Shown: one piece after another, positions 3,220-62,137 of the stretch | Layout of the letters: each line of letters opens with the position of its first letter | Numbering within the stretch: position 1 is the stretch's first letter | IMG/VR virus record: IMGVR_UViG_3300037439_000116 | Location: 4,562 to 68,561 of that record | Length of the DNA stretch: 64,000 bases | Origin: a virus | Lineage: Duplodnaviria; Caudoviricetes | Reading direction: 5' to 3' (one strand) | Translations under genes and position numbers: made by a program | Notes under the pieces: generated by a model | The model's database searches: none | What the model was told of the DNA's origin: nothing | The model's input: only the letters and a program-made list of their open reading frames with translations

Positions 3220-4002
3220 ATGGGACTGAGAGAGATGGCCGAGCAGGCCGGGGGCGCGAGCGGCCGAGAGCCGACGCGGCTGGATATTGAGGCGGCTGAG
3301 CGCAACGGGTTCGCTGCGCCGGACGTGGCCGAGTCGGGAGTGCCGGCGGGGATGGACGTACCGGTGCACGTGGCGTGGTCGCGGGTCATGCAGGACGTGG
3401 AGTGGATCGGCAAGTCGCGCCGGACCGAGTCGGGCGCGAAGTACAACTACCGGGGCATCGACGACGTGATGAATTTCGTCGGGCCGGCGCTGCGCAAGCA
3501 CGGCGTGTTCGTCCTGCCTGCGGGGATCGACCCGACGTACGAGGTCATCAAGACCACCTCGGGATCGGCGATGAACTACTGCCGGGCCACGGTGCGATTC
3601 ACGATCCACGGACCCAAGGGGGACACCATGCTCGCCGAGGTGCTCGGTGAGGGGTTCGACAACGGCGACAAGTCCGGGAGCAAGGCTCAGTCGATCGCGC
3701 TGCGGACGCTGCTGCTGAACGGGCTGGCGATCCAGACCAACGAGCCCGAGCGGGACACCGAGTACGGGGTGCAGCACGAGATCGCGGGGCCGCCGGTGCG
3801 CACGGCGGCTGACTATGCGGCGGAGATCCTGGACTCCGGTACCTCGATCGCGCGGCTCAAGATGATCCGGGCCGAGCTGGACGGGAATGATCGGCTGAAG
3901 ATGGCCATGGTCAGCGACGGGTTCGGGGACGAGCAGATCGAGCTGGGCCGGCTCGTGCGGCGTGTCGGCGCGCGGCGGCTGGCCGGAGAGAAGGGCGACT
4001 GA
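3220..4002 (+). CDS. ERF-family single-strand annealing protein
   Basis: YNYRGIDDVMNFVGPALRKHGV and GEGFDNGDKSGSKAQSIALRTLL; located near YqaJ exonuclease. Confidence 0.85.
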   Translation: MGLREMAEQAGGASGREPTRLDIEAAERNGFAAPDVAESGVPAGMDVPVHVAWSRVMQDVEWIGKSRRTESGAKYNYRGIDDVMNFVGPALRKHGVFVLPAGIDPTYEVIKTTSGSAMNYCRATVRFTIHGPKGDTMLAEVLGEGFDNGDKSGSKAQSIALRTLLLNGLAIQTNEPERDTEYGVQHEIAGPPVRTAADYAAEILDSGTSIARLKMIRAELDGNDRLKMAMVSDGFGDEQIELGRLVRRVGARRLAGEKGD

Positions 4003-10356: not shown

Positions 10357-10714
10357 GCCGTACGACGACGACCCGTGGGTCAAGGCGCTGAGCGGTCCGT
10401 GGACCGAGCGGATCGAGCGAGGGCAGAAGCCGTGCCACTACTGCCGCGAGCCTGCCGCCATGAAAGAACCCACGAGCGGACGGCCGGCGCACAAGGCGTG
10501 CGCGGAGCGGGACACCGACAGCGTTCCGCTCGGGACGTGGGACGGCGAGGACCGCAAGCCGGTCAAGGACGGGCCGCTCGGGTGCGGCACGCAGGGCGAT
10601 GAGATCTTCCGCGGGCGGCTTCCGCGGGCGGCTCTGCGGCGAGGTGGGCACGCAACTGTCGTGCAAGCTCTGCCCACGGTCGCCGACGTACGACGGACCG
10701 TTCGAGTGACCTGA
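10349..10714 (+). CDS. hypothetical zinc-finger-like protein
   Basis: CHYC...HKAC motif; overlaps upstream stop. Confidence 0.55.
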   Translation: MARPYDDDPWVKALSGPWTERIERGQKPCHYCREPAAMKEPTSGRPAHKACAERDTDSVPLGTWDGEDRKPVKDGPLGCGTQGDEIFRGRLPRAALRRGGHATVVQALPTVADVRRTVRVT

Positions 10715-10735
10715 GCCACCAGCAGGCATAGGGTC

Positions 10736-10773
10736 AAAGACCCCGCATCCATCAGGGTGCGGGGTCTCTTCTT
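10736..10773 (+). terminator. intrinsic terminator
   Basis: AGACCCCGCATCC-ATCA-GGGTGCGGGGTCT hairpin followed by CTTCTT. Confidence 0.7.
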
Positions 10774-10830
10774 GGCGGAGATGATGTAGGATGAAGGTCA
10801 ATCTATTACCTCGCCTGATCAGGAGAGACT

Positions 10831-11043
10831 ATGACCATGACCACCGAGGAGCGCTCGCGTCGCGCCTCGCGTGCCCGATCGCTGAACGCTCGGCGCCGCC
10901 GGTTTCAGCGGGCGTTGCAGGAGATGCGGGAGAGCGGACTCGTCGTGCTCGTGCTCGTGGAAGATCCGGAGATCCCGGATTCCATGCTCGCTGCGGCCGA
11001 GTACACCCCCGAGGAGACGCACGCCGCTGTCTACGGCAAGTGA
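10831..11043 (+). CDS. hypothetical protein
   Basis: AGGAGAG RBS, 70 aa. Confidence 0.65.
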   Translation: MTMTTEERSRRASRARSLNARRRRFQRALQEMRESGLVVLVLVEDPEIPDSMLAAAEYTPEETHAAVYGK

Positions 11044-11112
11044 GAGACGGCGAAGGCCCGCCGGGTAGGGCGGGCCATCTGGTCACCGGAACACAAGCAA
11101 CAGGAGATTGTC

Positions 11113-11568
11113 GTGACTGATTCTAGTACAAACGCCACCTTGCGCGCTGCCGAGGCGCTCGGGGATCCGGATCGGCTGTTCGACCTCGCGCAGGTCCGGT
11201 TCTTCATGGCCGCGGCCGAGGCGTACGGGTACGAGCGACGCCGGCGGGAGGAGCGCACGCCGAGCCGGCTCAGCTACCTCGCGGGGTTCGAGACCGGCTA
11301 CCGGCAGCGGGTCACCGAGGAGAACGCGGCCTACCCGCCCGAGCCGATGCGGCTGGTCACCACGCACGCGCAGGACGCGGTGCGGGTGCACCGGGAGCGG
11401 GTCGGTGTCGACGTCGTGGCGCCGCGGGAGGGCGACTGGCCGGGGGGCGACGCCGACACGGCGATGGCCCGCTACGGATGGGATGCCGACCGAGATGAGT
11501 CCGAGCCGCTGAAGGTCTCCGTCCGCACGCGCACCGAGCGCGGCCGGCTCGTGTGGGCCGACCAGTGA
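11113..11568 (+). CDS. hypothetical protein
   Basis: AGGAG RBS then GTG; GTGA coupling to methyltransferase. Confidence 0.7.
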   Translation: MTDSSTNATLRAAEALGDPDRLFDLAQVRFFMAAAEAYGYERRRREERTPSRLSYLAGFETGYRQRVTEENAAYPPEPMRLVTTHAQDAVRVHRERVGVDVVAPREGDWPGGDADTAMARYGWDADRDESEPLKVSVRTRTERGRLVWADQ

Positions 11569-13538
11569 CCGCGCCTGGGCCTGCGTGCGCCTGCTCAGGT
11601 GCTGAGACGACGCTGGTCAGCCTGTTCGACGGGATCGGCGGCTTCCCGCTCGCCTTCTCCTCGGCCGGCGTGCGGACCGTGGCCACGGTCGAGATCGACA
11701 AGGCAGCGGCCGGCGTGGCCGCGCTGCACTTCCCCCAAGCCCACCACTTCGCCGACGTCACGGAGGTGACCGCGGATGACATCCTCGCCGCCGGATTCTG
11801 CCCTGCCCATGGAGTTCTCACTGCCGGATGGCCCTGCCAGGGCAATTCGGTAGCAGGAAAACGAGGCGGCATGGCCGATCCTCGTTCGGGCCTCTGGCGT
11901 GATGTGGTCCGATTGCTGGGCGACGTGCGGCCGGCATGGTTTGTCGGCGAGAACGTTCCCGGGCTGCTGACCGTCAATAAAGGCGACGACATGCACGTCG
12001 TCATGTCGGACCTTGAATCGCTGGGTTACTTGGTAGAATTCGGCATTCATGATGCCCAGTTTTTTGGAGTACCCCAGCGACGCCGAAGGCTGGTTTTCAC
12101 GTGCCGAAACCTGGACCGTTTACTCGCGCAGAAGACGATTTCATCCGCGCTCACCTTGGCTCAATGCCTCACCGAGACATCGCTGATGATATTTCTCGTT
12201 CAGTCTCGGGGGTACGGAAAAGGGTCTGCGCCTTGGGTCTCTCTCGAAGCCTGCGTCGATGGACTCCAGCGGAGGATGACGCAATTCGCGATGCTGCGCG
12301 AGGCGGCGAGCGACTGGTCGACCTGGCTCAGCGTCTTGACCGGGGACTCAGTGAAGCGAGCGCTCGCGTCCGGCATCTCGGACTCGCCCCATGGCGACAG
12401 CATCGGCCGCGCCCTCGTCTCACCAAAGGCGGGCACGTCATCGCCGGATACGACCGCGAGCGAAACCGGTACTTACTTGAGCACCGAGTCGTCATGGCGG
12501 GAGCTACTGGCCGAGCTCTTCGAGATGGCGAAGTCGTCCATCACATCTCCACCGACAAGCTGGACAACCGGATCGAGAACCTTCACCTCTGCGCGGATGC
12601 TGCTGAGCATCAGCGCATACACCGCAGCCTTGACGCTCTCGTGCCCGAGCTTCTCGCGGCCCGCATCATCCGCTTCAACCGCGATCGGAGTGCTTACGAG
12701 TTATGCCAGATCCACAGGTGACAGCCTTCTTGCGGGAATGGACGGGTTCAACGACATCGTGGGACTCGACGCCGCCGCCAATGATCTCAGCGTCGCTCTC
12801 GGACATCTTGGAGACAGCGCCGGACCTGCCGAGGTACTGCTTGAGCCCGCGCGCGGCGGCGGGCATCCTGCGGCGAGCGGCGCGAAGCGAACGGGTACTC
12901 CCGGTAGTGCTTCAAGCAGCGTTGGAGTCGCTGGCAAAGGACTGCCAGAGCTAGCCCCGACCCTCCAGGGCGGCGGAAAGCGTGGCTTCCGAGTGGATGC
13001 TGAAACGGCCGCCGGCGGCGGTCTGATCACAGCACCGCAGGTGGTCAACGCGTTGACCCACAACAGCATCGTGGGGCTGGACGACAACACCGCTGAGGGT
13101 GCCGACGCCAGCGAGGATGAGACCGGGCGTGGCACGTCACTGGTCGCGTTCGGACTGCGCGCCAATCCCGGCGGGGTGGGGCAGGGGCACAACACCAACT
13201 ACGTCCCCGTTGCGTTCGGGCACAGGCAGGGACTCGACCCCCAGGCATCCGAGGACGTCACGCCGACCCTGCGCACCGGCGGTGGCGGGGCAGGGGTCTC
13301 GGTCGCTGCCGCAGTGCGGCGGCTGACGCCAGTCGAGTGCGAGCGGCTCCAAGGCTTCCCGGACGGGTGGACAGCGAAGCGGGCCGAACTCGTACTGTCG
13401 GGCAACCGGTGGACCGCGTCCGGCGTGGTCTCGGCGGCGTCGGACTCGGCGCGGTACCGGCAGCTCGGCAACTCGATCGCCGTGCCGGTGTTCGCGTGGG
13501 TCGCCCAGCGGATGGGGGGCGTCCGTGGTGATGCCTGA
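11565..13538 (+). CDS. dcm: C5-cytosine DNA methyltransferase with very long variable region
   Basis: Motif I LFDGIGGF, IV GWPCQGNS, VI ENVPG, VIII PQRRRRLVF, IX RRLTPVECERLQGFP, X RQLGNSIAVPV. Confidence 0.9.
   Translation: MTAPGPACACSGAETTLVSLFDGIGGFPLAFSSAGVRTVATVEIDKAAAGVAALHFPQAHHFADVTEVTADDILAAGFCPAHGVLTAGWPCQGNSVAGKRGGMADPRSGLWRDVVRLLGDVRPAWFVGENVPGLLTVNKGDDMHVVMSDLESLGYLVEFGIHDAQFFGVPQRRRRLVFTCRNLDRLLAQKTISSALTLAQCLTETSLMIFLVQSRGYGKGSAPWVSLEACVDGLQRRMTQFAMLREAASDWSTWLSVLTGDSVKRALASGISDSPHGDSIGRALVSPKAGTSSPDTTASETGTYLSTESSWRELLAELFEMAKSSITSPPTSWTTGSRTFTSARMLLSISAYTAALTLSCPSFSRPASSASTAIGVLTSYARSTGDSLLAGMDGFNDIVGLDAAANDLSVALGHLGDSAGPAEVLLEPARGGGHPAASGAKRTGTPGSASSSVGVAGKGLPELAPTLQGGGKRGFRVDAETAAGGGLITAPQVVNALTHNSIVGLDDNTAEGADASEDETGRGTSLVAFGLRANPGGVGQGHNTNYVPVAFGHRQGLDPQASEDVTPTLRTGGGGAGVSVAAAVRRLTPVECERLQGFPDGWTAKRAELVLSGNRWTASGVVSAASDSARYRQLGNSIAVPVFAWVAQRMGGVRGDA
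12101..12721 (+). CDS. HNH homing endonuclease with N-terminal Myb/HTH-like repeats, nested in the methyltransferase in another frame
   Basis: EHRVVM...EVVHHISTDKLDNRIENLHLC...HQRIH; repeats FTRAEDDFIR and WTPAEDDAIR. Confidence 0.85.
   Translation: MPKPGPFTRAEDDFIRAHLGSMPHRDIADDISRSVSGVRKRVCALGLSRSLRRWTPAEDDAIRDAARGGERLVDLAQRLDRGLSEASARVRHLGLAPWRQHRPRPRLTKGGHVIAGYDRERNRYLLEHRVVMAGATGRALRDGEVVHHISTDKLDNRIENLHLCADAAEHQRIHRSLDALVPELLAARIIRFNRDRSAYELCQIHR
12703..12954 (+). CDS. small protein nested in the methyltransferase in the third frame (possible accessory/beta polypeptide)
   Basis: SLSDILE..PRYCLSPRAAAGILRRA..LP..LQAALE, a motif I recognise from ORFs overlapping C5 MTase genes; start coupled to HNH stop. 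Confidence 0.6.
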   Translation: MPDPQVTAFLREWTGSTTSWDSTPPPMISASLSDILETAPDLPRYCLSPRAAAGILRRAARSERVLPVVLQAALESLAKDCQS

Positions 13539-26536: not shown

Positions 26537-27040
26537 GTGAAGCCGGACCCCGGCAAGCGAGGAACGCCGCGCGAGATCACACACCCGCCGTCCCAGATGA
26601 TCGACGTGTACGACCGCGCTCGCAAGGCAGCCGAGATGCGCCGCGACGGACGGCCGTGGGACGAGGTCGCCGCCGAGTGTGGGTACGCCGGCAAGGGCGC
26701 GGCGTACAACGCCGTCCGGGCGCGCATGGTCGAAGCGCGCAGCCTGGCTTACGGCGAGGTGGAGCTGTACCGCGCCGAGTCGATCGAGCGGCTGGAGGCA
26801 CTGCTGGCCGCCGTCATGCCGATGGCGCTCAAGGCCAGCGAGAAGCACGTCGAGTCGGCCCGTCGCCTGATCAAGCAGATCAGCGACCTGCGTGGCGAGG
26901 CTCAGCCCGTCAAGGTGGAGATCGGGGAGAGCGATGTCGATCGACTTCTCCGAGAAGCTACGGCAGAGTTCGAACGACGAGCTGCAGAGCTTGATCGGCA
27001 AGCTGGCGGAACTCCAGAGGCTGCGCAGCCGGATCGGTGA
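26537..27040 (+). CDS. terS: terminase small subunit
   Basis: HTH AEMRRDGRPWDEVAAECGY; directly upstream of TerL. Confidence 0.75.
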   Translation: MKPDPGKRGTPREITHPPSQMIDVYDRARKAAEMRRDGRPWDEVAAECGYAGKGAAYNAVRARMVEARSLAYGEVELYRAESIERLEALLAAVMPMALKASEKHVESARRLIKQISDLRGEAQPVKVEIGESDVDRLLREATAEFERRAAELDRQAGGTPEAAQPDR

Positions 27041-29540
27041 GCTGAGGCGCCCGGAGTTCCGGGCCCAGTATCCGACCCCCGGCCACCTGGCCCGCGCGCT
27101 CCAGCCGAGCACCCGCCAGACGCCGGCTCTCGATGCCATCGATGAGGCCCTGGTCGATCTGGCCAATGCGCCAGGGGCCACAGGGCGTACAATGATCTTT
27201 GTGCCGCCACAAGAAGGAAAGGCTCTAGCGCTCGACACGCCTATCGCCACCCCTCAGGGCTGGACGACGATGGGCGCTCTGCGCGTCGGCGATCAAGTGT
27301 TTGACCGACATGGCAAGACCTGTCGTGTCACCTGGGTCTCCCCCATCTGGCACGACCGGGAGTGTTACGAGGTCCGTACGGGCGACGGGGAGCGGATCGT
27401 CGCCGACGCGGTGCACGAGTGGCCGGCTCGACTGGATCGCCGATCAGGCGAGTACCTCCACGAGTCCTCGTCACTGGCGAGCCCTCGTTCCAAGAACGCG
27501 CAGATCGTCGCGCCGTCCGGCCTGGATCTTCCGGACGCCGAACTGCCGCTAGACCCGTATGTTCTCGGCGCATGGCTCGGAGATGGGCACGCTCGGTCAG
27601 CGCGCATGACGTTCGCTGACGAAGAGATTGCTGAGCGCATCCGCGACGCGGGCGTGCCGATTCGTAAGGTCCCGACCACTACCTACGGATGGTCTCTGGT
27701 CCCGGAAGGGTGGGCCAGCACCAGGACGTCGCCCATCAGGGTCACCTTGACCGCGATGGGTGTATGGGGAAACAAGCACATCCCCGCTCCGTATTTCAGA
27801 GGGTCGGACAAGCAGAGGCTCTCGCTGCTCCAAGGGCTCATCGACACCGACGGCTACGTCAGTCCGCGTGGGCAAGTCGAGTTCACCAGCACCAATCCCC
27901 TTCTTGCTGAAGGCGTACGCGAACTGGTCTACAGCCTCGGAGCCAAGGCCACGATCACCGAGAGCCGCGCCACCTTGGCGGGCAAAGACTGCGGGCCGAA
28001 ATGGCGCGTCAAGTTCTACCTGTCAGGCGCAGCGCACATCGCTCGCAAGGCCGACAGATGCAAGGACTCTTCAGTGGCTCGGGTCCGGTACGTCACGGCC
28101 GCCCGGACCGAATCGGTTCCCACGGTGTGCATCGAAGTGGACTCGCCAGACCACACGTTTCTAGCCGGTCGGTCCCTGCTGCCGACCCACAACAGCACCC
28201 GCACCTCGTGCTGGTTCCCGCTCTGGCTGCTCGCCCAGGACCCGACGTTGCGCATCGCGATCGTCAGCTACTCAGCGACCAAGGCCGAGCGCTGGGGCCG
28301 CTGGATCCGGCGCATGATCGAGAGCCACCCCGAGCTCGGCATCGAGTTGATGGGCGACCGCAAGGCCGTCGACGACTTCGAGACGACCGCGGGCGGGCGC
28401 GTCCTGTCGGTGGGCATCGGCGGCGGCATCACCGGCGAACCGGTAGACGTCATGGTCATCGACGATCCCCTGCGCGGCCGCGCCGAGGCCGAGAGCCCGA
28501 CGTACCGCGAAGCGGCGTGGGACTGGTGGGAGTCGAACGGCTCCACGCGCCTCAGTTCCCGCGGACGCGTGGTGCTGATGCTCACCCGCTGGCACTCCGA
28601 CGACCTCGCCGGCAAGCTGGTCAAGAACGAGCCGGGCAAGTGGAAGGTGCTCCGCATCCCCGCTGTCCGTGACCGGGCCCAGCCTCTCGTGCGCGGCAGT
28701 GACGGCGCCAGCGCGTACGCGCCGAACGGCGAGCTCATCAGCGTGCAGGGCCGTGAGCCCGGGTTCTTCCTGGACCTCAAGGAGACCCGGTCGTCGTACG
28801 TGTGGAACTCGATTTACATGCAGACGCCGGTCGCGGCCGAGGGCAACCTGTTCTCGAGGACCGACTTCCGCTACTGGCAGTGGGCTGAGTCGGACCCGAG
28901 TCACCACGATCCGCTTCACGGCGCGAAGCTCTCGATCGACGGCGTGGCGCTGTTCATCGCCGACATGGTCCGCTTCGTGACCATGGACCTCGCCGAATCC
29001 ACCAAGCGCTCGGCGGACTGGACGGTTGCCTCGGTCTGGGCCATCGACCTGAGCGGCCGACTGATCCTGCTGGACACCAAGCGGATGCGGGTGGCCGAGA
29101 AGGATCACGCCGACTTCCTCGCCCCGCTGTGCACCAGGTGGGCGACCCCTGACGTCTACGTGGAGCGCGGCTTCATCGGCACCGCGCTGGTCCGCGACGC
29201 GACGCAGGCGGGCATCCGCATCCAGCCGCTCAACCCATCCACCGACAAGGTGACCCGGGCCATCCCGGCCAGCAACCGGCTCAAGGCCCATCAGGTCTTC
29301 TGGCCCGACTACGTCGACTGGCTGGACGAGTGGTGCGACGAGATCGCGGGCTTCCCGACGTGGCAGTACGACGACCGCACGGACACCTTCTCCTACGCCG
29401 CTCACATCGCCGCCGCGCACTGGACCCCGCCGCCCAAGCACCCGCCGCGGGCCATCGCCACCCGAACCGACGCCGACCGCGCCTACCAGGCAGCGACCGG
29501 CCTCACCGGCGAAGTGGACCTCTCGCGCGCCGAGTGGTGA
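26934..29540 (+). CDS. terL: terminase large subunit containing an intein
   Basis: PPQEGK|S Walker A, GGITGEPVDVMVIDDP Walker B, TRWHSDDL, MDLA, DDRTDTFSY nuclease motifs. Confidence 0.92.
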   Translation: MSIDFSEKLRQSSNDELQSLIGKLAELQRLRSRIGELRRPEFRAQYPTPGHLARALQPSTRQTPALDAIDEALVDLANAPGATGRTMIFVPPQEGKALALDTPIATPQGWTTMGALRVGDQVFDRHGKTCRVTWVSPIWHDRECYEVRTGDGERIVADAVHEWPARLDRRSGEYLHESSSLASPRSKNAQIVAPSGLDLPDAELPLDPYVLGAWLGDGHARSARMTFADEEIAERIRDAGVPIRKVPTTTYGWSLVPEGWASTRTSPIRVTLTAMGVWGNKHIPAPYFRGSDKQRLSLLQGLIDTDGYVSPRGQVEFTSTNPLLAEGVRELVYSLGAKATITESRATLAGKDCGPKWRVKFYLSGAAHIARKADRCKDSSVARVRYVTAARTESVPTVCIEVDSPDHTFLAGRSLLPTHNSTRTSCWFPLWLLAQDPTLRIAIVSYSATKAERWGRWIRRMIESHPELGIELMGDRKAVDDFETTAGGRVLSVGIGGGITGEPVDVMVIDDPLRGRAEAESPTYREAAWDWWESNGSTRLSSRGRVVLMLTRWHSDDLAGKLVKNEPGKWKVLRIPAVRDRAQPLVRGSDGASAYAPNGELISVQGREPGFFLDLKETRSSYVWNSIYMQTPVAAEGNLFSRTDFRYWQWAESDPSHHDPLHGAKLSIDGVALFIADMVRFVTMDLAESTKRSADWTVASVWAIDLSGRLILLDTKRMRVAEKDHADFLAPLCTRWATPDVYVERGFIGTALVRDATQAGIRIQPLNPSTDKVTRAIPASNRLKAHQVFWPDYVDWLDEWCDEIAGFPTWQYDDRTDTFSYAAHIAAAHWTPPPKHPPRAIATRTDADRAYQAATGLTGEVDLSRAEW
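27222..28193 (+). mobile_element. class 3 intein with LAGLIDADG homing endonuclease (324 aa)
   Basis: Starts ALALDTP, ends PTHN before Ser+1; HEW, VCIEV and PTHN give the W-C-T triplet; LGAWLGDG and LLQGLIDTDG endonuclease blocks. Confidence 0.9.
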
Positions 29541-57124: not shown

Positions 57125-57154
57125 ACTGTACCCACGACCGTTGCCGATCCGCAA
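57125..57154 (-). promoter_or_regulatory. leftward promoter with GTGGGTACAGT box
   Basis: Minus strand TTGCGG-N18-TACAGT; box at 57125-57135. Confidence 0.7.
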
Positions 57155-58304: not shown

Positions 58305-58557
58305 CTTGGGTCCTCTCGGTGATGGTGTGGATCTTCTTCAGCACCTGCTCTGCGAGCCCCGCAACTTGAGCTGCGGGCCCCGCAAGCTCCTCGGCCGCGT
58401 CGAGCGCCTCCCCCGCAAGCCGGTCCGCAACTTCGGGGTCGCAACCTGCCCGCAAAAGTGCGGCCGTCCAGTCCGCAACCTGCTCGGCGTCCGGGACCGT
58501 GTAGCGGGTTGCGGCCACCCGCAAAAAGGCGGCCGCAACTTCGGCCTCGGAGGTCAC
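58231..58557 (-). CDS. hypothetical Ala-rich protein
   Basis: GTGA coupling to traA-like stop; carries CCGCAA repeats. Confidence 0.55.
   Translation of the reverse strand: MTSEAEVAAAFLRVAATRYTVPDAEQVADWTAALLRAGCDPEVADRLAGEALDAAEELAGPAAQVAGLAEQVLKKIHTITERTQDGHGIRTENSQGHDEHAGGNDGGG
58359..58538. repeat. dense CCGCAA repeat cluster
   Basis: CCGCAA at 58359, 58380, 58413, 58425, 58450, 58473, 58519, 58533; TCGCAA at 58439; inverted TTGCGG at 58509. Confidence 0.8.
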
Positions 58558-58904
58558 TTGCCGGCGTCGAACCGGCCGGCGTGCTGGCCTGCGGCTGCGG
58601 GCGCAAACGTGCCCTCGAAGATCGTGTTCGCTCGGGTGAGGGCGACGGCCGCAGCGATCTGCGAGGCGGCCGAATGGTTCAGGTGGTAGGCGATCTGGAT
58701 GGCCGCGATCCGGAGGTCGGCACCCATCCAGCCCTTCCGGCCCCGGACGTTCGTAGCCTTCGGGAGCTCCTTGCGCAGGACGGCGGCGACCGCCTGGAGG
58801 CTGCCCGCGTTGCCGTTGAACTCGGCCCGGACGTCGGCGACCATGGCCTCCCACTCGCTCGTGTTGGACGGGGTGATGATCCCCGAGTAGCCCGTACTGC
58901 TCAT
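58554..58904 (-). CDS. plasmid transfer protein TraA-like
   Basis: All-alpha 116 aa right after traB; IAYHLNHSAASQIAAAVAL..ANTIFEGTF resembles Streptomyces plasmid TraA C-terminus. Confidence 0.5.
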   Translation of the reverse strand: MSSTGYSGIITPSNTSEWEAMVADVRAEFNGNAGSLQAVAAVLRKELPKATNVRGRKGWMGADLRIAAIQIAYHLNHSAASQIAAAVALTRANTIFEGTFAPAAAGQHAGRFDAGK

Positions 58905-58915
58905 GTCTCGTCTCC

Positions 58916-59058
58916 TGTCAGATAGTCCGCTTGTATACGATCCGTTACCGTCGGGTCCTGTCAGATAGCAGGTGTCAGATGTCAGATGGCAGGGTGTCAG
59001 ATCCAAATCCCCTATAGGCAGAGAGATCCACGCGGCCTGTCAGGTGTCAGCTGACACC
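58916..59058. repeat. TGTCAG(A/G/C)T 8-mer array, clt-like candidate
   Basis: TGTCAGAT at 58916, 58959, 58973, 58980, 58995; TGTCAGGT 59038; TGTCAGCT 59045; palindrome GGTGTCAGCTGACACC 59043-59058. Confidence 0.8.
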
Positions 59059-59065
59059 CTCACGA

Positions 59066-61411
59066 TCAGTGATCACGCTTCAGCCGGTACTTTCCCTTCG
59101 TCCGACCGAGGTCCGGAGCGGGCATCAGCGTCTTGCCGCCATCGAGTTCGATCTCCCCGAGAGCAGCCTGCTGGAAGCTCTCGATGAACCACGGCCGGCT
59201 CCGGTAGGGGTACCGATCGACCACCAAGCTGACCGTGATGACGACCGTCCGACCCGTCGGGTCGGCCGGATCGCGCAGGGCCTCGTCGGCGAGCAGTTCG
59301 TCGAACGACTTGTTCAGCGCGACCAGTGCAGCCGCCCGGTCCCGCGGTGCCGGCTTGTCGTCGCCCCAGGAGACGTCCGCGGCACCGGTCTTCAGTGGCT
59401 CGGTCGCCTGGCTCATATTGCCGCGCTCGCCCGTCACCGGGTCCGGGGGGTACAGGTCGATGCCGTCCACGTTCTTCGCCTCCCGCAAGTTCTGCTTCAT
59501 GTCCTCCGCGACCTCTGCGGGGTCCTCGTCCGCAAAGTCGAACCCGTCATCGTCGTCCGGCACAGCGGCCGCCCGTCGACCTGCGGTCCGCAACTCCTCC
59601 GCATACTCGTCTCCCTCGTTCTCGGTTTGCGGGGTGTTTGCGGGGTCGGTTTGCGGGGTCCCCTGCTGGAGCAGGACGGCCCGGATGCGCTCCGTCTCGG
59701 CCACGGCGTTGTGCCACCAAATGGTGCCGTCGTCCTGTCGGGTCGCCATGACCGAACCCTGATCGAGCTTGGCCATCCGCGGTGCCCATTCGAGGTTCCG
59801 CTTCAGCATCTTCTCGACGAGGACGTCCTTGTCCTCGTCGCCAAAGGTGCGGTTCGGAACGGGGAACATCTCCTCGTCGATCCCAAGGCCTTCGACGTAG
59901 AAATAGCCGGGCTTGCGGGCCTTCCAATAGTCGGGTCGCGCACCTGCCTTAATGGTCGGCTCGCTGAGCGCGAAAATGGCGGACTGGTCGTCGCTCGTGC
60001 CGAAGCAGAGCGAGGTGCCGAGGTTGAATCGCAGGCCGGTCGGCATCTGCGTGTGGTCGGCACGCTGCATGGAGAAGCCGATGACGATGCCGAGGCTCAG
60101 GCACTTGCTGGCGATCGTCTGGCAGCGGAAGCCGTCGGACTGCAGGATCGAGTCCGCCTCGCCGACGTGCACGATCAGCTCGGGCATGGGCTCCATCTGC
60201 TCGCGCCGGCCCGCCTCGTTGGTGCGCCACTTCGGCTCGTGGAAGCAGTCCTTCACCGAGTAGGCCGAGATGCCGAACCGGCCGAGCTGGGCCTGGCGGT
60301 ACTTCATGATCTTCTCGACCTGCGTGAAGGCTGCGCGGTACTCGCCGCCCGTGTCGCCGTCGGCCTCGATGACCGCGACCTCGGTGACGGGGCAGACGGG
60401 ACGCAGATCCTGCATGCCCTTGCTCTTGTTGAGGTAGAGGATCACGTCGTCGCGACGGGTGCCGAACTCGGTGAGCATGGTGTTCTCGCCGACGGTCTTG
60501 CCCGCGCGGGACATCCCCATGAACAGGTAGTTGGACGGGGCCGTGATGTCGGTGGGCGTCTTGGGTCCGCCCGGTCCACCGACGTAGATCGTGACCTTCG
60601 TGCCCATGGCCGAGACGGCGATCACGGCGCCGTCGGCCACGGAGCCGCCGGGGCTGGACGGCTCGGGGAGCATCTGCTTCTTGATCAGCGGGTCGGTATG
60701 CATCAGGCGGAGCTTGCTGCGGTCGGCGCGGTCGCCACCGGTCGCGGTGGACATGCCGCCGGGCGAGCCGGTGGAGGACTCGATGTTGGCCTTGGCGTCC
60801 TGCAAGGTCTCCACGGTGTCGCCGTCGGCGTGGTCGAACTCGACCTCGGTGGCGATGAGCTCCCCGTCGTCGCCGTGGATCGGCTTGATGCTGCGGGCCT
60901 TCCAGCCCTTGAGCTTCTTGAGCCAGTCCGGGCCGTCCTTCTCGGCCTCGTCGCTCTTGTCATTGCGGGTGACGTCCAGACGGGCGATGGACCACGTCAC
61001 GGCGACGAGCCAGCCGGCGAGGATGAACAGGCCGGACCATAGCCAGCTCACGCCGACGCCGGCGTTGATGGCGAACAGCAGACCGAGCGCTGAGACGGAG
61101 CCGGCCAGGGCCGCCTGCTTGCCGCGCTCGCGGTGCTTGGCGAAGTCCCACGCCAGCGTGGACAGGCCGACGGTGGCCAGCACGAAGAAGGTGTTGGCGA
61201 GCAGGGGGGCGGCGGGGCTGGTCTTGACCGTCCAGTCGAGCGGGCCCCAGTGCAGGTCGACGCCGTGGGTCCAGACGTAGATCAGCCACGCGACGGGCAG
61301 GCCGGTGAACGGGGCGAGGAACAGGCCGAGGAAGCGGTGCGGCTGGTCGTGGACCTTGCGGCTACCGCCGCGCTCAGTGCTGGTCGTCGTGGTCTTCGTG
61401 CGCGTGGCCAT
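59066..61411 (-). CDS. traB: TraB-like FtsK/SpoIIIE conjugative DNA translocase
   Basis: N-terminal TM helices; GMSRAGKT Walker A; LSLGIVIGFSMQRADHTQMPT, GARPDYWKARKPGYFY; C-terminal wHTH with RSRPW. Confidence 0.85.
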   Translation of the reverse strand: MATRTKTTTTSTERGGSRKVHDQPHRFLGLFLAPFTGLPVAWLIYVWTHGVDLHWGPLDWTVKTSPAAPLLANTFFVLATVGLSTLAWDFAKHRERGKQAALAGSVSALGLLFAINAGVGVSWLWSGLFILAGWLVAVTWSIARLDVTRNDKSDEAEKDGPDWLKKLKGWKARSIKPIHGDDGELIATEVEFDHADGDTVETLQDAKANIESSTGSPGGMSTATGGDRADRSKLRLMHTDPLIKKQMLPEPSSPGGSVADGAVIAVSAMGTKVTIYVGGPGGPKTPTDITAPSNYLFMGMSRAGKTVGENTMLTEFGTRRDDVILYLNKSKGMQDLRPVCPVTEVAVIEADGDTGGEYRAAFTQVEKIMKYRQAQLGRFGISAYSVKDCFHEPKWRTNEAGRREQMEPMPELIVHVGEADSILQSDGFRCQTIASKCLSLGIVIGFSMQRADHTQMPTGLRFNLGTSLCFGTSDDQSAIFALSEPTIKAGARPDYWKARKPGYFYVEGLGIDEEMFPVPNRTFGDEDKDVLVEKMLKRNLEWAPRMAKLDQGSVMATRQDDGTIWWHNAVAETERIRAVLLQQGTPQTDPANTPQTENEGDEYAEELRTAGRRAAAVPDDDDGFDFADEDPAEVAEDMKQNLREAKNVDGIDLYPPDPVTGERGNMSQATEPLKTGAADVSWGDDKPAPRDRAAALVALNKSFDELLADEALRDPADPTGRTVVITVSLVVDRYPYRSRPWFIESFQQAALGEIELDGGKTLMPAPDLGRTKGKYRLKRDH
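59588..59658. repeat. CCCCGCAAA repeats inside traB
   Basis: TTTGCGGGG at 59626, 59637, 59650; CCGCAA at 59588. Confidence 0.7.
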
Positions 61412-61598
61412 CGGTGCCTCCTTCCAGGAACGAGCGGACGTCGGACTCGCGGACGCGGTGATGGCCGCCGGGGGTCGGGGTGGACGCGACACGGCCGGCG
61501 CGGATCCACCGGGCCACAGTGGCCGTATCGACCCTGAACAGCGCGCCGACCTCGGCCGTGGTCAGCAGCCGATCGCCGCCGAGCAGGTCGTCACCCAC
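61374..61598 (-). CDS. BldC/excisionase-family MerR-like HTH protein
   Basis: LLTTAEVGALFRVDTATVARWIRAGRVASTPTPGGHHRVRESDV closely follows the BldC pattern. Confidence 0.85.
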   Translation of the reverse strand: MGDDLLGGDRLLTTAEVGALFRVDTATVARWIRAGRVASTPTPGGHHRVRESDVRSFLEGGTDGHAHEDHDDQH

Positions 61599-62101: not shown

Positions 62102-62137
62102 ACTGTACCCACAGTAGGCCGGAGGGCGCAAGGGTCA
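62102..62137 (-). promoter_or_regulatory. leftward promoter with GTGGGTACAGT box
   Basis: Minus strand TTGCGC-N18-TACAGT, also TTGACC-N16-TACTGT; box at 62102-62112. Confidence 0.7.

Follow-up and report, generated by a model that had tools for sequence, protein, structure and literature searches.

A CTGACA-type repeat array directly after the traB-like gene of a 68.5-kb tailed phage is a probable TraB loading site resembling the clt of pWTY27

The stretch of DNA analyzed here (the window; 64,000 nucleotides, 68.9% GC) comprises bases 4562-68561 of a complete viral record of 68,561 bp, 127 bp of which is terminal repeat. The window encodes a full tailed-phage gene set. Recombination is represented by YqaJ and ERF, and there are further genes for a helicase, a beta clamp, an exonuclease, a methylase, and proteins with DUF3987 and DUF1353. 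The set also includes a capsid protein, a Mu-like portal, an intein-bearing terminase, tail tube and tape-measure proteins, and a GH25 lysin. The terminase large-subunit frame (26871-29540, plus strand) matched LAGLIDADG, Hom_end, and Hint and looks like an intein-containing terminase. No match to Phage_integrase (tyrosine), Recombinase (large serine), or ParB_N was obtained in the complete 68.5-kb genome.

On the minus strand of the window, a small HTH_17 gene, a traB-like gene, and a conserved downstream gene follow one another, and the repeat array lies in the gap between the latter two (Table 1). This gap is 161 bp long and extends from the traB stop codon (59066-59068) to the ATG of the next gene (58904-58902). 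The downstream gene had been called traA-like in the original prediction. This label is unsupported, because the 116-aa gene product matched neither the Pfam TraA-like family nor any other family; it is also unrelated to the genes that follow the pWTY27 and pCQ3 arrays. None of the genes examined in the tra region matched a TraA-like family or was annotated as GntR. A promoter-like 11-mer, GTGGGTACAGT, was found at seven positions (once with a mismatch) where 0.6 copies would be expected: 62102-62112 and 57125-57135 (both on the minus strand), 4632, 4656, 16464, 44759, and 63613. No such box lies inside the 161-bp gap. The copies at 62102 and 57125 lie on either side of the tra block, an arrangement suggesting that a single unit extends from about 62100 to 57136. 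The leftward gene block that contains the tra genes also includes, upstream of them and outside the window (genome positions 3397-3861, minus strand), a gene for a 154-aa protein with a weak match to the SocA/Panacea antitoxin domain. In addition, a second array of about 10 TTGCGG/CCGCAA-type copies in 180 bp was observed on the minus strand at 58359-58538, 370 bp further downstream than the TGTCAG array. It follows a terminator-like hairpin (58546-58531), and its copies occupy different codon phases of an overlapping ORF.

Table 1. Position of the repeat array, its parts, and the adjoining genes in the window
Feature	Position	Strand	Description
HTH_17 gene	61374..61598	-	MerR/Xis/BldC-like; 74 aa; overlaps the traB start; Pfam HTH_17 E 5.8e-11
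traB-like gene	59066..61411	-	781 aa; N-terminal long helices, FtsK-type motor, C-terminal winged helix
Predicted winged-helix DNA-binding domain, coding region	59069..59353	-	C-terminal 95 aa of TraB; helix 3 begins RSRPWF
Repeat array	58916..59056	-	Gap between traB and the next gene; in the reading direction of the tra operon, seven direct copies and one inverted
Palindrome GGTGTCAGCTGACACC	59043..59058		16 bp, perfect; one inverted and one direct copy; 8 bp past the traB stop codon
Inverted-repeat arms	58991..59060		10 bp, perfect; 58991-59000 and 59051-59060, flanking the centre of the gap
Central palindrome CCTATAGG	59011..59018		Family consensus CCTA(N)RGGG
Core block, four ATCTGACA copies	58959..59002	-	Start-to-start spacings of 14, 7, and 15 bp
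Final direct copy	58916..58923	-	Abuts the ribosome-binding site of the next gene (GGAG, 58912-58915)
Downstream gene	58554..58904	-	116 aa, conserved, after the array

The seven TGTCAG(A/G/C)T copies that had been reported for the gap after traB were all found, together with one inverted copy. The matches to TGTCAGVT start at 58916, 58959, 58973, 58980, 58995, 59038, and 59045 on the plus strand, and the single minus-strand copy is located at 59049-59056. The 64-kb window contains 10 TGTCAGVT matches, eight of them within 58916-59056, compared with 3.45 ± 2.0 matches in shuffled sequences, none of which reached 10. The clustering of TGTCAGVT after traB is far beyond chance. Read along the tra operon, the seven direct copies follow the pattern (A/C/G)(T/C/G)CTGACA (five ATCTGACA, one ACCTGACA, and one AGCTGACA), and the motif of the array is ATCTGACA with the core CTGACA(CC). 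All five copies of TGTCAGAT in the 68,561-bp genome are inside the array; the word ATCTGACA (five of five) is thus locus-specific within its replicon. Five of the seven genome copies of TCTGACA and eight of the 20 copies of CTGACA are also in the array. The duplicated 13-mer TCCTGTCAGATAG (58913-58925 and 58956-58968) and the 16-bp palindrome GGTGTCAGCTGACACC were both present as described in the original prediction. The inverted copy adjoins the traB stop, and two of the ATCTGACA copies in the core block share one base.

The locus therefore displays two traits of a clt, namely a cluster of short (5-9 bp) direct repeats accompanied by inverted repeats (seven direct copies and one inverted copy in 141 bp) and a position adjoining the 3' end of traB, where the array begins 8 bp past the stop codon. 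The sps palindrome associated with SpdA was considered as a candidate and rejected, because sps, a palindrome of 12 bp encoding SRDD/E, is a distinct sequence. TGATCA/GATCAC-like boxes containing GATC were observed on both sides of the array, at the traB stop (59062-59075) and before the final copy (approximately 58935-58945), and such flanking boxes are present in most relatives and in pWTY27.

The 781-aa protein matched NCBIfam plasmid_TraB (NF041214) over residues 96-678 with 221 bits (E 2.5e-65), a score below the equivalog cut-off of this family (800 bits), and shows 25-31% identity with plasmid TraBs. The phage TraB is a distant relative of the NF041214 family and not an equivalog. Its Walker A sequence (GMSRAGKT) and an HVGEAD motif are invariant across 42 homologues. 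In the AF2 model of the protein (pLDDT 80.9), long helices are found at residues 25-149, and this N-terminal block is a predicted membrane anchor. The best fold matches of the motor were the FtsK motor and TcpA (E about 5e-13). The C-terminal 95 aa were modeled with a pLDDT of 86.9 in the order H-b-H-H-b-b, and the top 50 structural neighbors of this part were all winged-helix domains, with middling Z scores of 5.3-7.2. Foldseek matches of the C-terminal domain were weak (E about 0.1), with the iteron binder RepE among the neighbors, and a sequence-profile search of the domain against the PDB found no chain. The predicted protein accordingly has the architecture of a TraB, in which an FtsK-type motor with Walker A/B lies between an N-terminal anchor and a C-terminal winged helix.

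About 43 TraB homologues with 37-65% identity were found, many of them on contigs of 64-70 kb. Relatives were missed when viral contigs were scanned with a single sequence but were found by alignment-based scans, and tblastn and blastn searches of 50,697 isolated phage records gave no DNA or TraB match. DNA was obtained for 16 phage-family loci, whose TraBs are 32-65% identical to that of the window. The gene order is kept in the relatives (HTH_17, traB, a gap of about 150-200 bp, and a gene of 112-134 aa), and in the closest relatives with fetched flanks (L002 and the P0007 contig) the tra block converges on lysis genes. In all 16 related loci, traB is directly followed by an array that shares the core and layout of the one in the window. 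The order within the gap is the same in every locus: inverted TGTCAG copies, the central palindrome, a polar direct block of four to seven copies, and a TGATCA-like box. The inverted copies are situated at the traB stop in nearly all relatives, and the final copy is situated by the ribosome-binding site or start codon of the next gene in most. The CCTA(N)RGGG centre occurs in every relative (L002-L025, L030), often preceded by a hairpin and a T-run, and is recognizable in pWTY27 (CCCCTAGG) and pCQ3 (CCTTAGG). Inverted arms that bear the motif around this centre were also found in L002, L007, and L008 and in the IC1 repeat of pWTY27.

The density of CTGAC(A/G) in the 220 bp after traB was 27-55 per kb, compared with 0.3-2 per kb elsewhere in each locus. 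Conservation of the gap (0.70-0.82) equaled or exceeded that of the flanking coding DNA (0.66-0.80). In three complete relatives, four of four, three of three, and four of five ATCTGACA copies (11 of 12 in total) are inside the array. The word drifts within the family, being ATCTGACA in the clade of the window and CCTGACAC(C) or CCTGACGC in distant members. The spacing likewise changes, from 7 or 14 bp in the clade of the window to 10-12 bp (one helical turn) in distant members; the spacing pattern of the core block recurs as 13-15/7/13-14 bp in L002, L003, L004, L006, and L016. One of the loci, L013, is from a cultured Micromonosporaceae strain, Rhizomonospora bruguierae NBRC 107566 (contig NZ_BBQH01000056.1); its traB is 34% identical and is followed by the same kind of array, and the strain is a possible experimental host or carrier. 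In a distant relative, a CsrA-family gene lies between the HTH_17 gene and traB (L025:2770-2985).

The closest counterpart with experimental data is pWTY27 of Streptomyces sp. Y27. Transfer of this plasmid needs tra and a clt that consists of the last 16 bp of tra and the next 159 bp, and deletions in clt cut transfer 10- to 1000-fold (PMC3583192). Purified pWTY27 Tra shifts clt in gels and protects two stretches from DNase, which cover four TGACACC (DC1) repeats and an inverted repeat (PMC3583192). In the pWTY27 record, the protected stretches contain four (C/G)TGACACC copies at the tra stop, an inverted GGTGTCA, and CTGACAG; the centre reads CCCCTAGG, and a GATCACAC box precedes the next ribosome-binding site. 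The phage array thus matches the footprinted pWTY27 clt in core, TGACAC(C), and in layout: both lie at or just after the traB stop, contain direct and inverted copies, span approximately 160-175 bp, and have a CCTAGG-like centre and a GATCAC box ahead of the next ribosome-binding site. The C-terminal domains of the two TraBs are homologous (hhalign E 2.4e-5), with SRPW at the start of helix 3 in both, whereas the motors are only 29% identical. The order of the elements differs, in that the direct copies of pWTY27 overlap the stop codon and its inverted copy comes after the centre, whereas in the phage the inverted copy comes first and the direct block follows. Compared with pWTY27, the clade of the window has an added 5' AT (ATCTGACA) and a relaxed 3' CC. 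The replicons are also unlike in size, pWTY27 being a 14-kb plasmid and the phage genome 68 kb. A gene annotated as 'phage major capsid protein' is located about 800 bp downstream of the pWTY27 clt (L014:3643-4001; record 10642-12102).

The comparison with pWTY27 bears on the earlier claim that the array represents a new TraB recognition sequence. This claim does not hold for the core, since CTGACA(CC) equals the TGACACC of pWTY27 DC1 and is also found after traB in pCQ3, pRL1, and an Amycolatopsis plasmid. The sole part of the word peculiar to the clade of the window is the AT that extends CTGACA(CC) on its 5' side. An array in the position after traB is found in pJV1 and pSN22 as well as in pWTY27, pCQ3, and pRL1. 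Phages and plasmids differ in the genes flanking the arrays: upstream lies HTH_17 in the phages but traA or hypothetical genes in the plasmids, and downstream the two groups have unrelated genes. TraB is the sole neighbor common to all CTGACA arrays, which argues more cleanly for TraB as the reading protein than does the helix-3 comparison given below.

The phage array also resembles the clt of pSVH1 and pJV1 in that a cluster of 7-9-bp direct repeats with a lineage-specific word lies by the 3' end of traB and is read, or in the phage would be read, by the TraB C-terminus. The pJV1 clt, CCGCACA[C/G][C/G] in nine copies, has a different word, and helix 3 of the pJV1/pSN22 type starts with RDRSWVS in contrast to RSRPWF in the phage TraB. 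Elements of the pSVH1/pJV1 type are small plasmids with a GntR repressor, whereas none was annotated among the phage genes examined. Another likeness is to the Streptomyces plasmid-phages pZL12 and pCQ3, which are virion-encoding elements with traA-traB. pZL12 is described, in work cited in PMC3583192, as a plasmid with a transfer cycle and a lytic phage cycle, and pCQ3 carries capsid and tail genes and a CTGACA-type array directly after traB. On the other hand, pCQ3 has ParA/ParB, a tyrosine integrase, and traA, whereas the searches of the phage genome for ParB_N and integrase were negative; the phage has an HTH_17 gene upstream of traB instead, and the TraBs are about 31% identical. Finally, FtsK gamma/KOPS and SpoIIIE/SRS likewise pair an FtsK-type hexameric motor, which bears a winged helix at its C-terminus, with a polar loading word of 8 bp, and Foldseek comparison of the phage TraB with FtsK motor structures gave an E of about 1e-12. 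KOPS and SRS are, however, dispersed and skewed along the chromosome, whereas the phage words are packed in one 140-bp array and nearly absent elsewhere, and the FtsK gamma domain was not recovered among the listed structural neighbors of the phage TraB winged helix.

A published model cited in PMC3583192 assigns the reading of the 8-bp repeats of the pSVH1 clt (TRS) to helix 3 in the winged helix of TraB. We compared the repeats after traB and the TraB C-termini of 11 plasmids with those of the phage family. CTGACA(CC) was accompanied by a helix 3 starting with x-S-R-(P/S)-W-x-S in pWTY27, pCQ3, pRL1, the Amycolatopsis plasmid, and most of the phage family, the sub-clade of the window having I, T, or V at the last of these positions. 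GTGACACC was accompanied by x-R-x-W-x-Q in a Nonomuraea plasmid, a Thermobispora plasmid, and the phage-like contig L026; CCGCACA (the known clt of pJV1) by R-D-R-S-W-V-S in pJV1, pSN22, and pSSPS4.7a; and GCGCACC by T-K-R-W-F-Y-R-Q in the plasmid of Streptomyces sp. NBC_00122. For the covariation of word and helix 3 anticipated among the homologues, the picture is mixed: the four repeat classes match four helix-3-start classes over 27 loci, but these classes follow phylogeny, and L007 (CTGACAC) and L008 (CTGACGC) differ in word while having nearly the same helix 3. Because of the phylogeny and this exception, the covariation is suggestive only, and to that extent appears to agree with the published model. 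On contig L026, a TraA-like gene precedes, and GTGACACC repeats follow, a gene for a 643-aa TraB homologue (28% identical); this locus adjoins baseplate genes (gpV, gpW/gp25, and gpJ-like), pointing to a second, myovirus-like phage context.

Since the array is real, is conserved in the sampled relatives, and matches the pWTY27 clt, it is most likely the site at which TraB grips the DNA of this actinomycete phage. The proposal that the array is a clt recognized by TraB is well supported by the comparison with pWTY27, in position, layout, and core, and by the 16 of 16 related loci. The confinement of the word to this locus and the FtsK-type motor and winged helix of TraB also speak for it, and we consider it probable, on these comparative grounds, that the array is a TraB loading site of the pWTY27 clt type. 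In the mechanism we propose, a membrane-anchored, FtsK-like TraB hexamer would read the CTGACA-type words through its C-terminal winged helices. The close spacing of the direct copies (7 or 14 bp in the clade of the window and about 11 bp in distant relatives) may allow joint binding by several winged helices of one or several rings, so that the motor would assemble at the array on its own DNA and drive the double-stranded genome through a membrane or septum. The direction of TraB loading might be set by the orientation of the direct copies, which is conserved, and the inverted copies at the traB stop may have a role as well. An additional or alternative regulatory role is conceivable because the final copy abuts the next ribosome-binding site and the central palindrome is conserved; TraB bound at the final copy could also damp the translation of the next gene.

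The best rival to a TraB loading site is an operator for a regulator of the transcription or translation of the tra operon, with the HTH_17 protein (BldC/Xis-like) as the candidate regulator and the 116-aa gene onward as the target. Throughout the phage family, traB has an HTH_17 gene as its neighbor. BldC-family proteins line up head-to-tail on direct repeats, and BldC regulates an FtsK-like translocase operon (PMC5859096). The contact of the final repeat copy with the ribosome-binding site of the next gene in most relatives is as expected of an operator, and the phasing of about 11 bp in distant relatives would suit cooperative binding on one face. However, examination of the one or two genes preceding traB in pWTY27, pCQ3, pRL1, and the Amycolatopsis plasmid, all of which carry the same kind of array, revealed no HTH_17 gene. 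The BldC site consensus is AATTNNNN(C), a head-to-tail 9-mer with an AT-rich half (PMC5859096). The array word, (A/C)(T/C)CTGACA(CC), is GC-rich; the AT-rich AATTNNNN(C) is unlike the GC-rich CTGACACC, and the spacings are 7, 14, or 11-12 bp instead of 9 bp. Furthermore, a search of the 161-bp gap for a sigma-70-like promoter found none, the GTGGGTACAGT boxes being at 62102 and 57125 instead, and the motif is absent upstream of HTH_17 and traB, where an autoregulator would be expected to act. The BldC-like alternative, which had been offered alongside the clt in the original prediction, is thus weakened, and we regard an operator as unlikely.

It could also be supposed that the real TraB site is the second, TTGCGG/CCGCAA array and that the TGTCAG array serves another function. 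The nine to 10 TTGCGG-type copies in 180 bp are in different codon phases, similar repeats follow the homologous gene of 114-119 aa in L002, L003, L006, L007, and L008, and the word loosely recalls CCGCACA, the clt repeat of the pJV1 type. TTGCGG is, however, common genome-wide, with just nine of its 74 copies in the second array, and such an array was not seen in L011, L013, L009, and L004. Moreover, nothing corresponding to it is present in the footprinted clt of pWTY27, and helix 3 of the phage TraB is of the type associated with CTGACA, not of the pJV1 type. We therefore consider this assignment very unlikely.

A site for the plasmid-style maintenance of an extrachromosomal prophage, either a parS-like centromere or replication iterons, would account for the short phased direct and inverted repeats, which are typical of such elements. 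A plasmid-like state is conceivable because the genome gave no integrase match, and RepE is among the weak Foldseek neighbors of the TraB winged helix. Against this, the complete genome has no ParB_N match, no replication initiator lies next to the array, and the replication genes (those for the helicase, the beta clamp, and the DUF3987 protein) are 40-50 kb off. In addition, the array always travels with traB, even in plasmids that have rep or par elsewhere: ParAB of pCQ3 is about 46 kb away, and the mapped iteron of pWTY27 is at another place. A maintenance site is thus highly improbable. The distances of the array from the terminal repeat (about 5 kb), the terminase gene (about 30 kb), and the replication genes (40-50 kb) led us to reject a cos/pac site or an origin as well.

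That the conserved sequence acts as RNA, as a structured leader or a terminator of the tra transcript, is scarcely credible: the inverted copies could pair in the transcript, and L004 and L009 have a clear hairpin and T-run between the inverted and direct copies, but the fold was no better than those of shuffles (z = 0.28), no Rfam match was obtained, and the unpaired direct copies change along with the inverted ones (CTGACGC in L008), a co-variation that fits one protein reading all copies and not base pairing.

As judged from these comparisons, the CTGACA array is of a known clt kind, and its principle, position, and core word were already known, as were virion-encoding Streptomyces elements with traB (pZL12 and pCQ3). 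What is new is the ATCTGACA form specific to this clade, with its spacing of 7/14 bp; the arrangement of inverted copies, centre, and direct copies, which is strictly conserved; and the host replicon, a family of tailed phages of about 65-70 kb with no match among isolated phages, the complete member analyzed here giving no integrase or ParB match. We tentatively suggest, as a possibility that we hold to be less than even, that tailed phages of about 65-70 kb of mycelial actinomycetes keep a plasmid-type TraB motor and its loading site and could move their double-stranded DNA genome between hyphal compartments or cells without virions, the layout of the array setting the place and direction of loading.

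If TraB does load at the array, a lytic-looking tailed phage would possess a working DNA export system of the conjugation type and, with it, a second, virion-free route of spread through the mycelium. The 161-bp fragment and a single 95-aa domain would then offer a compact handle for working out how the TraB winged helix reads DNA, with the natural words ATCTGACA, CCTGACAC, CCTGACGC, and GTGACACC paired with natural variants of the recognition helix. CTGACA/TGACACC would be an old and widespread type of TraB recognition, common to plasmids of Streptomyces, Amycolatopsis, Nonomuraea, and Thermobispora and to phages.
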